Positions 59 through 5,838 of a stretch of DNA of 28,160 bases are shown piece by piece. The translations under genes were made by a program, and so were the position numbers. How positions within the stretch are numbered: the first letter of the stretch is position 1; each line of letters begins with the position of its first letter. The stretch is from positions 1 to 28,160 of the forward strand of contig JBDLRP010000017.1 in NCBI GenBank assembly GCA_039799905.1, in the 5' to 3' direction. Source of the stretch: Pseudomonadota bacterium (GTDB lineage: Bacteria; Bdellovibrionota_B; Oligoflexia; Silvanigrellales; Silvanigrellaceae). Under the pieces are notes generated by a model that was given only the letters and a program-made list of their open reading frames with translations, had not been told where the DNA came from and ran no database searches.

Positions 59-607
59 TTAGTGAGTGGTAGCGGCGATCATCATTGTGATCATGTGAAG
101 TGAGTATTTGTAGCAAGCCTGCCCTTCAAACTTGAAGGAGAAGCCCTCGATGCCGCGGCCTGAAATTGTGTACGTCGGTTTGATGAAATGGTTGTTGCGG
201 AAGTCTTCCGAGGTTACAACGGCTTTGACGTTTTCACCGTTGACGAGGAATGTGTACTCATTTTTCTGCCGATCGAGTCCGGCAAATTGAATGCTCGTTG
301 TTCTTGTGCCGTTCAATCCGCGGTGCTCGACAGTGCCGCCGAATTGTTTTTCTGTTTGGCGAAAGAGCGCCTTCACGTCTTGGCCGTCGCGGCGCATGAT
401 CAATTCACTTGTCCCCTGAGCCTCGTTGACGCTGCCCCAGATGACGAAATTCTTAACTGAACCAGCCATGGCGTGGTCATACACCTTGAGGTCGATGGCA
501 AGGTCACCCTTGATGGATGAAAGGTCATGGCCGTCTTCGGCGTGAGCTTTTCCAGAGTTGAGAGACGCAAGAACCATCATTCCGGAAACGAGCAGAGTCT
601 TCAGCAT
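59..607 (-). CDS. Secreted hypothetical protein, 182 aa
   Basis: Sec signal MLKTLLVSGMMVLASLNSGKAHA|E ending in AHA; AAAGGCGG upstream of ATG; beta-rich mature part; no recognisable family. Confidence 0.8.
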   Translation of the reverse strand: MLKTLLVSGMMVLASLNSGKAHAEDGHDLSSIKGDLAIDLKVYDHAMAGSVKNFVIWGSVNEAQGTSELIMRRDGQDVKALFRQTEKQFGGTVEHRGLNGTRTTSIQFAGLDRQKNEYTFLVNGENVKAVVTSEDFRNNHFIKPTYTISGRGIEGFSFKFEGQACYKYSLHMITMMIAATTH

Positions 608-790
608 TTTGACCGCCTTTGTTAAGGATTGAATTGTCTAATCTTTAAACAGTGCCTCTTTGTTTACAAGAAACGCCAACAGATTTCAATGTTTGCCACA
701 GCGGCGAAAGCTGCCACAGAGCGAAGATTTTAGTTGCGACACGGTGCTTTCGTTCATACCACCCATGCCGGCCTGGGAGGAGATGACGCT

Positions 791-3700
791 TTGCGGACAA
801 ATCTTTTGTATGTTTTGAGTTTCTTTCTACTGCTCCTGCAGTCGACGCCGGCCTATTCCTCCGATGGTTTTGGTCCGCTGTTGAAAAGCCAGATAGAGAA
901 TACGTTTTTTGAGAATGGCCGCGTTTCTTCACACAAGGTTGAATTGTTCCGTTTGAACGTCGAGACAGCGCAGCGCGAGACCTACAAAGGTCTTGTCGAT
1001 TACTACGTCCACGTTGGTCAGAAATCCCTCCAGGACGCAGAGAAGAAGGCTAGCTCGGCATCGCTGATGAAAGCCTTTGCGAGATTGAGCGCAGTCACTG
1101 AAAAGCTGAAAAAATCGGAAGGCCAAGCGTCCTACGACCTCGCTGCTTCTGCATTGCATCTTGGCTATACCGTACGTTCCGAAGGTCGCTGGATGGACTA
1201 CGATGAGATCAAAGGTTATGCAAAAGGTGTGTTCAAGCGTTACCAAGTGAAGCGCCGCAATGCGAATCAGAGCGAAGCATCCAACCTGTGGAATGCAAGT
1301 CAGTCGCGTTTTTACACGCAGGCCGAGCTGATGAAAATCAAGGCCGATGGAGGCGACGTATCCGCACTCAATCCGCTTGGAAATGGTACCTATTGGAACA
1401 ATTTGGATGTGTCAGGCCAACCCATGGCCCGCACGTATCAAAACTCCACGGGTCTCTATCAAGGGATTGATTTTGTGTTTCCGGAAGACGGTGCCACGGT
1501 TGATTTCGATGAGGTCAAGCGAGCACAAAGCCGCCCCAAGTTTGACGTCACTTGGAATGCGAATGGAAAGAAGAAAAAATTCAAACTGAAATTCTTGAGC
1601 GAGACTCACAGCGAAGTCACGGCTGCAACACTGATGTCCGCCTTGGGTTTCAACACTGACCCGTCAAGGCGCGTGAACAACATCCGAGTGCGTTTCAAAG
1701 ACGGAGAAAAGGCAGTTTTTCATCGCGATCTCGAGAGCTATTACGGCTACTGGGAACTCCAGCAGGCGATTGTTGAAGATGGCCGCGATGCACAGGGCGA
1801 CTATATTGTTTTTCGTGAGGCTCTGCTTGAAGGCAGAACTGATGATTTGATTCGCGTGGGCGCGTGGTCGTTCACTCAGAATGGTCATCCGGAGACACGC
1901 GAAGTCCGCGCAATGCCAATTTTTATGGTTTGGATCGCCAACAATGACATGAAGGAGTCCGGCCAAAACAAAATGATTCTGCGCTCGGATTCAGAGGCTG
2001 ATAAGGTTTACTTTGCCTCCGGCGATCTGGGTTGGGCATTCGGCAGCTTCATGTTTCCGGAAACGCCCTCGTGGTTTAAGTGGAACGTTGTCAAAGACGT
2101 CCGTCCTGATTCAGTTTCATTTAATTACTTGACGTGGCACTACAGCGATTTATTTCAGTTTACGACTTGGGATGACGCGCGTTGGATGGTGCGGCTCATT
2201 GCTCGACTCACACGCGGTCAGATTGTCAACGCTGTACGCGCTGGTCAGTGGGATCCATCCATTGAGAAGGTGCTGATTGAAAAGCTCATCGCCCGACGCA
2301 ATCAACTCGTTCGCACGTTTGGCTTGGGCAACGAGTTTCCAGACGTTAGTTTCAACGACACAGTTGCTCCCGCTGACCAACATGAAGATGCCCTGGTTTT
2401 GTTTCCGGACGGTTCGGCGGGCGGCAAAGGGCACGACAAGTTGCTAGACCTCGTACAGACGATGAGCCGTCCGGTTTTTGAGTATCTGCAGCCTTCATTA
2501 ATGAGCATTCAAACTGGAATCATCAATGCGGCGCTCGACAGAGCAGTGAAGCCCGTGACCGAAATCCGTCTGACAGGTGATGACCTTGCCGGGCTTGGAT
2601 TGCCGTTTGCAGCCGGTATGATTTTGAGGATTCACAGATCTATTGTCAGAAACGAACAACCTAAGTCGATGAATGAGCGTTTTCTGGTGCACGATCAGAT
2701 GGTCATCGGCTGGACTCTCGGCACCAATCTGGCTGGAGTGGGGAGTTCGCTCACGTACTACCGTAGTTTCAATTTGGTTTATCCTGTCCGCCAGCAGAGT
2801 GAGGGTGTTTTTAAGGCCGCTTATCTGCCCTCGTTGCTCATGCCCTATTCTCCCGGTCTTTTGAAACTGCCAAACAAGCATTCAATCCTGATTGAGGACT
2901 ACGTTGAAGGGCGCGGATCACTCAGTGTGTCGGGACAGGCTCCTGTCGTGCTGAGTGCGGAAGGCAGCCTGGCAAGGGTTTATCTCAAGCGTGTTTTGGT
3001 CAGCGACAGAGAAGACAAAAAGGTCAACATACTGATCGATAATTCTCATTACACCGAGCTGAGTGCAAAGGTTGCCGCTGCGTTGAAAGTTGGATTCGTC
3101 AGCATGAATTTTCCTTTCTTCGACGGTTCCTTAAGGAAGGGAAGCATCGACCGCGAGCTGTGGAGTCTTCCCGCCGACTCCCCCGAATCACGCCACCGCG
3201 CGCGAGGAGCCCTCAGTCTTGTTGCGAAGTCGATGCGCACGGATACGCTTCCGGCGCTTGCGAGCCGAGTTGAAATTGATGCCGACTTCTTGATGAAAAA
3301 GTGGGGATTCAACCTATTTGGGTTAGTGACGTCGCTCGACAGTAAAACGACCGCGGATGTTGAAGAAACCGATTATGTGCAGAGCAGCGAGACCCAGCGC
3401 AAACTGCAGATTGAAAATGTCAGCGAGAATTTCTGGAAGGCACCCATCTTCGACATTCAGGAGCGCGATACTGTAAAAAGCTTTTTTATGGGTGTTAAAA
3501 GTGAGGACGGCTCCTTCAACGACAGTGTTGTTGGACTCAACATCCGCCAGTGGGACTCGGCAACCACGTCACAGGAACTGAGGGACGATGCTGTAGTGTT
3601 GGCGCAGAAGGCGTCTGCAGATCCGAATTTTATCGTTTTCTCGCCGGCCCTACACACCAACAAGGATCAGTGGGGCGCAGTGATAACTATGGTCGACGTG

Positions 3701-4225
3701 CTGATTTATGAGTCGGGAGTGGAGAGGCTTCTGAGTCTCAGTGACGAACACTGGTGGAAGGAATTCACACGTCTCACCGGCATCGTACCGTCCAATCGGA
3801 GGGAGGGCACGATGCTTGCAAAGGACAGAGCCCTTTTGGATAACTTTAAACAATTTTTGAGTTCACTCGAGAAGGCCAAGCGTGCCCCTAATCAAAGGCG
3901 CCGTGCCGAGGCGATGACTCAAGCGATGGGGCAAACAGCTGTTGCCGTGAGCCTCACCTCCGGCGTCAAGGGCGATCTGGTTGGCGTCGTTTTGAGCCAG
4001 CTGAGCGTGGACAGCTACTTTCTCTCGGTGAAGATTTCATCGCCGATTTACAAACAGAACATTTTTCCGACTGAAAAGCCTCTTGTGAACAGGCGGGGAG
4101 TGTTGAAGTTCAAGGACGCGCGACTTCATGATTTTTCTTTGAATACCATTTCGGTCATTTATAACTTTTTCGACACACTGATCCCTGTCGGAAGCACCGT
4201 TCCGAGCATGGATTATCCATTTTGA
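791..4225 (+). CDS. Large exported protein (~1,144 aa) with an N-terminal atypical kinase-like (HipA/PI3K-like) domain and an unknown C-terminal region
   Basis: 3.4-kb ORF. Probable TTG start at 791, with GGAGG at 776-780 and signal peptide MRTNLLYVLSFFLLLLQSTPAYS; the ORF track starts it at 734. Motifs: AQSRPKF, KFKLKF, ETHSEV, WIANNDMKESGQN, GDLG. The CDS is certain; the kinase call is inference. Confidence 0.7.
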   Translation: MRTNLLYVLSFFLLLLQSTPAYSSDGFGPLLKSQIENTFFENGRVSSHKVELFRLNVETAQRETYKGLVDYYVHVGQKSLQDAEKKASSASLMKAFARLSAVTEKLKKSEGQASYDLAASALHLGYTVRSEGRWMDYDEIKGYAKGVFKRYQVKRRNANQSEASNLWNASQSRFYTQAELMKIKADGGDVSALNPLGNGTYWNNLDVSGQPMARTYQNSTGLYQGIDFVFPEDGATVDFDEVKRAQSRPKFDVTWNANGKKKKFKLKFLSETHSEVTAATLMSALGFNTDPSRRVNNIRVRFKDGEKAVFHRDLESYYGYWELQQAIVEDGRDAQGDYIVFREALLEGRTDDLIRVGAWSFTQNGHPETREVRAMPIFMVWIANNDMKESGQNKMILRSDSEADKVYFASGDLGWAFGSFMFPETPSWFKWNVVKDVRPDSVSFNYLTWHYSDLFQFTTWDDARWMVRLIARLTRGQIVNAVRAGQWDPSIEKVLIEKLIARRNQLVRTFGLGNEFPDVSFNDTVAPADQHEDALVLFPDGSAGGKGHDKLLDLVQTMSRPVFEYLQPSLMSIQTGIINAALDRAVKPVTEIRLTGDDLAGLGLPFAAGMILRIHRSIVRNEQPKSMNERFLVHDQMVIGWTLGTNLAGVGSSLTYYRSFNLVYPVRQQSEGVFKAAYLPSLLMPYSPGLLKLPNKHSILIEDYVEGRGSLSVSGQAPVVLSAEGSLARVYLKRVLVSDREDKKVNILIDNSHYTELSAKVAAALKVGFVSMNFPFFDGSLRKGSIDRELWSLPADSPESRHRARGALSLVAKSMRTDTLPALASRVEIDADFLMKKWGFNLFGLVTSLDSKTTADVEETDYVQSSETQRKLQIENVSENFWKAPIFDIQERDTVKSFFMGVKSEDGSFNDSVVGLNIRQWDSATTSQELRDDAVVLAQKASADPNFIVFSPALHTNKDQWGAVITMVDVLIYESGVERLLSLSDEHWWKEFTRLTGIVPSNRREGTMLAKDRALLDNFKQFLSSLEKAKRAPNQRRRAEAMTQAMGQTAVAVSLTSGVKGDLVGVVLSQLSVDSYFLSVKISSPIYKQNIFPTEKPLVNRRGVLKFKDARLHDFSLNTISVIYNFFDTLIPVGSTVPSMDYPF

Positions 4226-4226
4226 T

Positions 4227-5036
4227 TCACAGCTTGACCTTCAGCAGGTCAAGCTGTGTCAGGGTTGCGAGCAAATTCTGGAATTCTTCCGTCAAATCTG
4301 ATTCATCTGCTTTTTTCAAAGCCAATTCCGATTCCAGAATATCGACGGACGCTGCAACGCTCAGGCCATCAATCAGTGCCTGAGCGAATGGTTCGAATGG
4401 CTCTGCAATGGCGACGACCTGAAATTGCAAGTGATGGTTTTTACCGAGCAGAACAGCTCGTCTTTGAGTGAAAATAATCTCAGGGAGACTGCCGTTGTTG
4501 CTGTATGCGGCATGAGACCACGCTGCCGCGAGATCATGCGCGCCACTGGGCATCAAGAGTTGCGAACCGCTTCTGAGAAAGATGTTCTCGAGTGAATGTT
4601 GGTCAGTCGCCTGCGTGTCGTTGTCGTCGGTGTCGGTCAGAATGCTCCAGCGTCTGGTGCACAGGTCTGCGACGTCGGCAAAGAGCAACGCTTCACGCGA
4701 TTGGTTGGACTGCCTGAGAATTGCCGGCAGTTCGTCGGCGGATGAAGTGAGGTCTGCTGCACGAGGCGGCTGTGATTTAAAGAATCCTGCAAATACGTGA
4801 GCAACAAATTCTTTTCCGAATAGATTTTCGCATGCTTCAAAGATAGTTTCTGATAAATTTGCCGTGATGCGTCCCAAGTAGCTCGCCTGATATGTTTCAA
4901 GGCGGTGCAGGTACCTTCCATCCACTGAATTAGATAATAATGATTCTGCAGCACGCCGGTCGTCCAGAGCTGTGAGCCATTCCATGAAGTGGATTTGATA
5001 TTGCAAAAACGTCTTTGGATTTTCTGTTTCAGTCAT
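4227..5036 (-). CDS. DUF2063-like MNIO partner protein (BufC/HvfC-like), ~269 aa
   Basis: N-terminal pattern RLETYQASYLGRITANLSETIFEACENLFGKEF...FFKSQPP matches the DUF2063 style (RLxxY...L...FP...LG.F...PP). ATG at 5036 overlaps the DUF692 stop (ATGACTGA), indicating translational coupling. Confidence 0.75.
   Translation of the reverse strand: MTETENPKTFLQYQIHFMEWLTALDDRRAAESLLSNSVDGRYLHRLETYQASYLGRITANLSETIFEACENLFGKEFVAHVFAGFFKSQPPRAADLTSSADELPAILRQSNQSREALLFADVADLCTRRWSILTDTDDNDTQATDQHSLENIFLRSGSQLLMPSGAHDLAAAWSHAAYSNNGSLPEIIFTQRRAVLLGKNHHLQFQVVAIAEPFEPFAQALIDGLSVAASVDILESELALKKADESDLTEEFQNLLATLTQLDLLKVKL
4228..4258. terminator. Perfect 13-bp inverted repeat hairpin at a convergent gene junction (possible terminator or RNA-stability hairpin)
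   Basis: CACAGCTTGACCT-tcagc-AGGTCAAGCTGTG, beginning 2 nt after the + strand stop at 4225. No U-tract on either strand. Confidence 0.45.
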
Positions 5037-5838
5037 CGAGAACTCCGCACATTCCGAATTCCAGCTCGCGAAGAAGTTCGTCAAGTGTTGCACTCGGGTC
5101 GTCATTTTCGAGGATGACAGGAATATCCGTCCTCTTTGCTGCAACTGCTCGGCACATTTTCCAGACTTCACGACAGACTTTTCCATCGTGCGTGTCAAAC
5201 AGAAAATCCTCCCGCAGACTGTGTCCCGCAACATGAATCTGTTTGACGAATCCAAGCTCGAAACGCGCGAGCTCTGCCTGCGGATCGAGGGAGAAATTTA
5301 TCGCTGAGACGTAGACGTTGTTGACGTCAAGAAGAATTCCACAGCCTGTGCGGTCTGCTATTCGGTTTAGAAATTCTCCTTCGGGGATGGAGTCTTCTTT
5401 GTATGCGACATATGCCGAGACATTTTCGAGGCTCAATTGCCGGCCCAAGGTTTGCTGGACTTCATCGACGCGCCGCACAACGTGTTCGAGCATATGCTGA
5501 TTGCGGACCACGGGCAGAAGCTCGTAGCTCCTGAGCCCTGCGGCGCCGGTAAAGCAAAGATGATCTGAAACAACCTGCGGATTGAATAGCCTCACGAGTT
5601 CGAGCAAGCCCTCAAGATAGTGCTTACTCAGCGGTTCCATTCCGCCGATATTCAACCCGATGCCATGGAGTACGACGCAGGGTGACTTCGTCGCAAGCCG
5701 GAGCGTATGCTGCAACGCGGGGCCGCCGCGGTGGTGGAGGATATTGTCGGCCATGATCTCGAGGGGTGGAACGGTACTCAGCGACTGATAGTCGGAAAAG
5801 TGAGCGGGCCTGAGACCGAGACCCCACAGGGATTGCAT
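5029..5838 (-). CDS. DUF692 family multinuclear non-heme iron-dependent oxidase (MNIO; BufB/HvfB-like)
   Basis: GLGLRPAH, LHGIGLNIG, SDHLCF, LENVSAY, LLDVNNVYVS, IHVAGH, DTHD and ILEND cover the usual DUF692 iron ligands. RBS AAGGA. Confidence 0.92.
   Translation of the reverse strand: MQSLWGLGLRPAHFSDYQSLSTVPPLEIMADNILHHRGGPALQHTLRLATKSPCVVLHGIGLNIGGMEPLSKHYLEGLLELVRLFNPQVVSDHLCFTGAAGLRSYELLPVVRNQHMLEHVVRRVDEVQQTLGRQLSLENVSAYVAYKEDSIPEGEFLNRIADRTGCGILLDVNNVYVSAINFSLDPQAELARFELGFVKQIHVAGHSLREDFLFDTHDGKVCREVWKMCRAVAAKRTDIPVILENDDPSATLDELLRELEFGMCGVLDD

Follow-up and report, generated by a model that had tools for sequence, protein, structure and literature searches.

The window analysed here, a 28,160-nt stretch of contig JBDLRP010000017.1, carries a gene for a 1,144-aa protein which we read, with a probability of about one half, as an exported, membrane-anchored kinase that would phosphorylate a substrate of the cell envelope; in relatives whose genes lie beside a polyphosphate cassette, polyphosphate is a plausible phosphate donor. 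Support for the kinase reading comes from a conserved Lys/Glu/Asp/Asn/Asp set, which is lost in a sister clade, from a confidently modelled kinase fold, and from the linkage of distant relatives with VTC/DUF4956 and phosphate genes. The protein obtained no name from Pfam, NCBIfam or PDB sequence searches, and no published description of the family or its architecture was found in the literature searched, supplementary family tables lying outside its scope. The analysis adds an unannotated, widespread kinase family, with an architecture that is new to that literature: signal peptide, kinase and membrane-type beta domain.

Kinase domain and catalytic motifs

The gene and the features of its kinase domain are as follows; conservation is given as counts in the best 150 of 709 representatives at 50% identity.

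791..4225, + strand: gene for the 1,144-aa protein (record P0002); TTG start at 791, frame open from 734
1307..2365, + strand: atypical kinase domain, residues 173-525
1589..1591, + strand: Lys267, likely ATP-binding, at the end of strand 260-268; kept in 133/150 (144 cover the position)
1601..1615, + strand: Glu271 and Glu275, at the start of an alphaC-like helix (272-284), from conservation and the modelled helix
1940..1972, + strand: catalytic loop N384-x-D386-x-K388-x4-N393-K394, from conservation in the 150 relatives
2024..2032, + strand: D412-L-G414, the DFG equivalent (metal-binding Asp), from conservation in the 150 relatives

The initial annotation had placed HipA/PI3K-like kinase motifs in this protein, and they are found there, all in one frame between 1523 and 2308: AQSRPKF (1523-1543), KFKLKF (1577-1594), ETHSEV (1601-1618), WIANNDMKESGQN (1931-1969) and GDLG (2021-2032), followed by the C-lobe motifs DDARW (from 2171) and LIARRNQL (ending at about 2308). 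The Lys/Glu/Asp/Asn/Asp residues are kept in most of the 150 relatives: besides Lys267, these are E271 (135/150, 144 cover) and E/D275 (139/150, 145 cover), D386 (139/150), K388 (104/150) and N393 (105/150; 149 cover each of the three), N384 (117/150), and D412 (144/150) and G414 (139/150; 148 cover each). Either E271 or E275 is a candidate for the partner of Lys267 in a predicted ion pair. Q246 is weakly kept (68/150, 142 cover), and several other basic residues close to the motifs show conservation (K250 126/150, K265 116/150, K/R394 125/150). The catalytic loop of HipA is of the His type. The loop studied here reads D-x-K-x(4)-N and His stands at the Lys position in only 3/150 relatives, so the D-x-H type quoted for HipA/PI3K, which had been assumed before, does not apply. 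The Asn of the loop is found at D+7 in this protein and at D+5 in distant members.

The fold and residue traits of a protein kinase-like (PKL) domain were found: a predicted bilobed fold, a beta3 Lys and an alphaC Glu, a catalytic Asp, an Asn and a metal-binding Asp. The reference for the beta3 Lys and alphaC Glu is K72/E91 of PKA (available text of PMC9758233); the catalytic Asp, the Asn and the metal-binding Asp are the equivalents of D166/N171/D184. The structure check agrees with the kinase assignment, as the predicted fold is bilobed and all 50 structural matches listed for the domain model are kinases. The fold, of the CtkA/Fam20/PI4KII/CotH/HipA clan, is modelled with confidence. Conserved residues and fold matches support the assignment to the HipA/CtkA/PI4K/CotH structural clan, as an atypical kinase that is likely exported. 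Unnamed Acidobacteriota clusters of 280-350 aa are the nearest to the kinase part in the Atlas comparison (0.95-0.96), HipA_2 scoring only 0.83.

Probable signal peptide and C-terminal beta domain

The remaining parts of the product are:

791..859, + strand: likely Sec signal peptide, residues 1-23 (by eye: an A-x-S cleavage pattern after a basic start and a hydrophobic core)
863..1240, + strand: N-terminal helical domain, residues ~25-150 (predicted helices 29-148)
2381..2605, + strand: linker of low confidence, residues 531-605, with two helices (predicted local distance difference test <50)
2552..4105, + strand: C-terminal beta domain, residues ~588-1105, a 15-strand antiparallel meander with helical inserts

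The N-terminal signal peptide of the initial annotation is likely, judged by eye from the Sec-like start, and homologues have hydrophobic N-termini as well (also by eye). The C-terminal membrane-type beta domain had been missed. In the predicted model, strands 1-7 are amphipathic and their hairpin tips hydrophobic, and the domain is likely inserted in a membrane; the Atlas comparison of this part gave nothing at >=0.9.

Comparison with known systems

The top fold match of the kinase domain is CtkA of Helicobacter pylori (PDB 3akj), at 13% identity. According to the available part of PMC5536186, CtkA targets host cells and its putative type IV secretion signal is C-terminal, whereas in the 1,144-aa protein the likely signal peptide is N-terminal, a large beta domain is present and a basic C-terminal tail is lacking; no type IV secretion system genes were recognised by eye among the open reading frames of the window. 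Identity to Fam20/Fam20C, PI4KII-alpha, actin-fragmin kinase and MavQ is 10-16%, with no Pfam match. Members of the clan act on proteins, glycans or lipids, so that the substrate cannot be read from the fold. CotH kinases differ in their motifs, in the PF08757 match, which is missing here, and in the C-terminal membrane-type beta domain.

HipA/HipT toxins are set apart: the protein has no HipA Pfam match, it has a signal peptide, and Lys rather than His follows the catalytic Asp. Pfam gave no family at E<=1 for the protein and no HipA match at E<=0.1 in 40 homologues. A HipA toxin-antitoxin module was considered and rejected, since there is no antitoxin gene and a signal peptide is present. 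The criterion for HipA-homologous toxins is an adjacent putative antitoxin gene (available text of bioRxiv 2021.04.14.439929); here no such gene is adjacent, the upstream gene being divergent and the downstream one a convergent DUF2063 partner. Concerning the Omp85-type barrels with an N-terminal enzyme (patatin PlpD, the ‘Metallo’ subfamily), the protein has no Omp85 or autotransporter Pfam match and no POTRA, and its beta domain differs by large helical inserts and hydrophobic hairpin tips; the available text of the paper on these barrels does not mention a kinase. By fold and residues, the family would work like the CtkA/Fam20/PI4KII/CotH/HipA kinases and is outside HipA, CotH and CtkA membership.

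Distribution and clades of the family

The protein had been taken for an orphan; instead, 41 full-length homologues were found among 3,450 candidates, and the 709 representatives were obtained at E<=0.001. The family is present in 26/116 genomes of the phylum. In the genus of this genome, it is found in 8/9 other genomes (~63-75% identity), compared with 0/12 in the sister genus g8, and the gene is single copy in the 3.38-Mb, 93.8%-complete genome studied. The nearest named relatives are Silvanigrellaceae-type genomes. Named loci belong mostly to Bdellovibrionota, and Myxococcota, Opitutales, Aminicenantes and Ozemobacter labels are also seen.

The sister clade is catalytically dead. Its members (~1,030 aa, mostly Bacteriovoracaceae) lack the N-terminal helical domain and retain the C-lobe helices (DDARW, EKLI-RRN), whereas K267 and ~35 residues including DLG are lost in 8/8 members aligned. 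As only the helices are kept there, the helical motifs are structural and the catalytic motifs are kept specifically in the active clade; the pair of clades is a built-in control. An S8 protease gene adjoins 36 of the 44 loci L033-L076 (mostly dead clade); of the other eight, seven run into the end of their contig, and L047 holds a short form that belongs to the active type. Short forms (550-650 aa) contain only the signal peptide, the helical domain and the kinase, with the active site kept.

Neighbouring genes and polyphosphate

Neighbourhoods were tallied by hand, with VTC and DUF4956 scored within 8 kb; genome loci L013-L029 were counted (n=17), L012 and L030 being left out as their flanks are too short. 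VTC and/or DUF4956 genes, usually co-oriented, are found near distant full-length relatives in 9/17 of these genome loci and in 10/34 metagenome loci (L108-L141); a cassette with these genes is known beside CotH. Where N-termini of the VTC proteins were inspected, no signal peptide was seen. None were found in L033-L076 (0/44), L142-L158 (short forms; 0/17) or L159-L187 (0/29). Perhaps about five lineages carry the linkage. Outside the taxonomic family of this genome, VTC is present in 12/16 genomes with a member of the kinase family vs 27/72 without, an enrichment that proves little because it is among kin. VTC with DUF4956 is likened to the polymerase-plus-channel complex of yeast.

Other recurring neighbours are an HlyD/phytase-like protein and metallophosphoesterases. 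PPK1 with CYTH/CHAD is near the kinase gene in L024, and phosphate porin O/P in L122 and L124. A beta-helix protein is also a neighbour: the L023 member is over the CotH cut-off, and relatives are found in L123, L132, L133 and L137.

The cassette of cotH, a polyphosphate polymerase (VTC) and DUF4956 has already been published (bioRxiv 10.1101/768473, PMC12345266); polyphosphate is not proposed as donor in the available text of these papers, and that of the lipocone paper PMC12419801 mentions neither CotH nor VTC. For CotH-type enzymes, the question of how bacteria fuel kinases outside the cytoplasm is still debated. As the VTC/DUF4956 cassette is shared by two exported kinase families that are unrelated, polyphosphate is a directly testable donor.

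Proposed function and alternatives

In the reading that we prefer, the protein would be exported through its signal peptide and anchored in a membrane via the hairpins of the C-terminal beta domain, and the kinase domain would act outside the cytoplasm on an envelope substrate next to the membrane (a surface protein, lipid or glycan). In relatives with VTC and DUF4956, the donor may be polyphosphate made in the cytoplasm and moved across the inner membrane, used as such or first turned into ATP; it might thereby fuel the kinase outside the cell, where ATP is scarce. This donor is proposed for the cassette-bearing relatives and not for the genome studied, because the latter has no cassette.

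Several points weigh against this reading. Kinase activity and substrate are predictions from sequence and models, and no precedent for a polyphosphate-using kinase of such a fold was found in the literature searched. Foldseek gave no match at E<=0.001 for either of the two models searched. The beta domain resembles outer-membrane barrels loosely, with barrel matches only at high root-mean-square deviation; the hydrophobic belts of strands 8-11 are short, and coevolution (~154 effective sequences, top pairs noisy) gave no sign of barrel closure. Concerning the gene context, the VTC/DUF4956-positive loci are partly kin or duplicates (metagenome loci repeat genome loci), and VTC, DUF4956, CotH-like and porin genes are all missing in 7/17 genome and 19/34 metagenome loci. 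VTC/DUF4956 is found near 0/11 of the closest loci (L001-L011), among which the gene context differs. The genome studied has no VTC, DUF4956, CotH or porin O/P match, PPK1 being the only polyphosphate gene found, and VTC and DUF4956 are absent from 9/9 other genomes of the genus and 2/2 of family f7.

A bolder version of the proposal, which we regard as doubtful, is that the kinase family runs on polyphosphate instead of ATP: VTC and DUF4956 would make and export polyphosphate, the membrane-inserted kinase, equipped with a beta-barrel-like domain, would phosphorylate envelope targets with it and be interchangeable with CotH in the cassette, and the dead clade would reuse the scaffold with a subtilase. 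If true, it would account for bacterial phosphorylation outside the cytoplasm.

The initial annotation had suggested an exported atypical kinase that may be an effector in prey or host cells; the first part is supported by the conserved residues and the clan fold, whereas the second is weakly supported. A secreted effector, whose beta hairpins would enter a prey or host membrane like a pore former and place the kinase at, or pass it to, the ATP of the target, is unlikely. In its favour, the hydrophobic hairpin tips all point the same way and the soluble domains lie opposite (as placed from aligned ranges), the linker is poorly ordered, the top fold match is a host-acting kinase and the family is rich in Bdellovibrionota. 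An adjacent protease and lectin domains are features of protease-activated pore formers, and the family has the S8 protease beside the dead clade and ricin-type lectin domains in one member. However, the short forms, which have no beta domain, still have a signal peptide and active site; no pore-forming toxin is among the 50 structural matches listed in either of two comparisons; and no conserved immunity-like, secretion-system or small neighbour gene was seen across the loci inspected. For CtkA itself, the putative type IV signal is C-terminal; genomes labelled Aminicenantes and Opitutales also carry members; and a single copy, with the family present in 8/9 other genomes of the genus, suggests a stable function. 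The effector is less likely because of the N-terminal signal peptide, the short forms without a delivery domain and the phosphate/polyphosphate envelope neighbours.

Those neighbours (PPK1, CYTH/CHAD, VTC, phytase-like/HlyD, porin O/P, metallophosphoesterases), together with the additional basic residues K250, K265, K388 and K/R394 near the motifs, would also suit another phosphate chemistry outside the cytoplasm. The enzyme might, e.g., exchange phosphate of polyphosphate with a nucleotide or a small molecule and so help to capture or store phosphate, the beta domain serving as an anchor or a channel. We consider this improbable: the close structural relatives all phosphorylate proteins, lipids or glycans, and the closest branch has no polyphosphate cassette.

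Very improbable, and rejected for the active clade, is a pseudokinase, which had also been suggested and which would be an inactive support for the beta domain: the dead clade of the same family indicates that the architecture can work without catalysis, and Asp and Asn stand two residues further apart than in canonical kinases, yet K267, E271, E/D275, D386, D412 and G414 are each kept in 133-144/150 relatives and all present in this protein, the catalytic residues being lost only in the sister clade.

Gene surroundings and further observations

776..780, + strand: likely ribosome-binding site GGAGG, 10 nt upstream of TTG 791, judged from sequence

A promoter and terminator scan gave counts at chance level. 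The upstream neighbour (window 59-607, - strand) is a divergent gene for a 182-aa protein whose start resembles a signal peptide and for which no Pfam family passes the cut-off; its position is kept in L001 and L002 only. Downstream (window 4227-5838, - strand), an MbnB/TglH/ChrH (DUF692-type) enzyme and its DUF2063 partner are convergent to the kinase gene; L002 and L006 have the pair close by too, and there a transporter gene lies in between.

A metallophosphoesterase gene is close downstream of the kinase gene in L004, L007, L009, L010, L083, L084, L086, L138 and L139, and also in L031, L047 and L105; it is convergent in the genus of this genome, and a kinase/phosphatase pairing is possible. 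In L109, L112, L119 and L135, a conserved unannotated 300-320-aa gene, a candidate partner or substrate of the kinase, lies directly upstream; in L109 and L119 it comes after VTC/DUF4956. In L199:1390-3654 (G090:C9), a VTC domain opens a 1,470-aa frame directly after a DUF4956 gene.

In the dead clade (L033-L076, L159-L187), a subtilase S8 gene is nearly always adjacent and small lipoprotein-like genes often are; together, dead clade and subtilase are candidates for a two-gene system by which Bacteriovoracaceae secrete proteins or form pores. The 1,373-aa member at L046:6696-10817 has insertions around its kinase-like part, which are lectin domains of the ricin-type beta-trefoil kind. At L026:7986-11312 the gene is split (275 + 760 aa), and the VTC cassette that L017 and L021 have at this site is missing; gene and cassette may have decayed together, or the assembly may be at fault. 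Two paralogues are head to head in L015, L019, L020, L025, L114 and L117, and one of them is followed by the genes for DUF4956 and the HlyD/phytase-like protein, by a 400-aa gene that has no annotation, and by VTC. L019 is labelled Sulfitobacter, probably through a binning error, and shows synteny with Halobacteriovorax loci.
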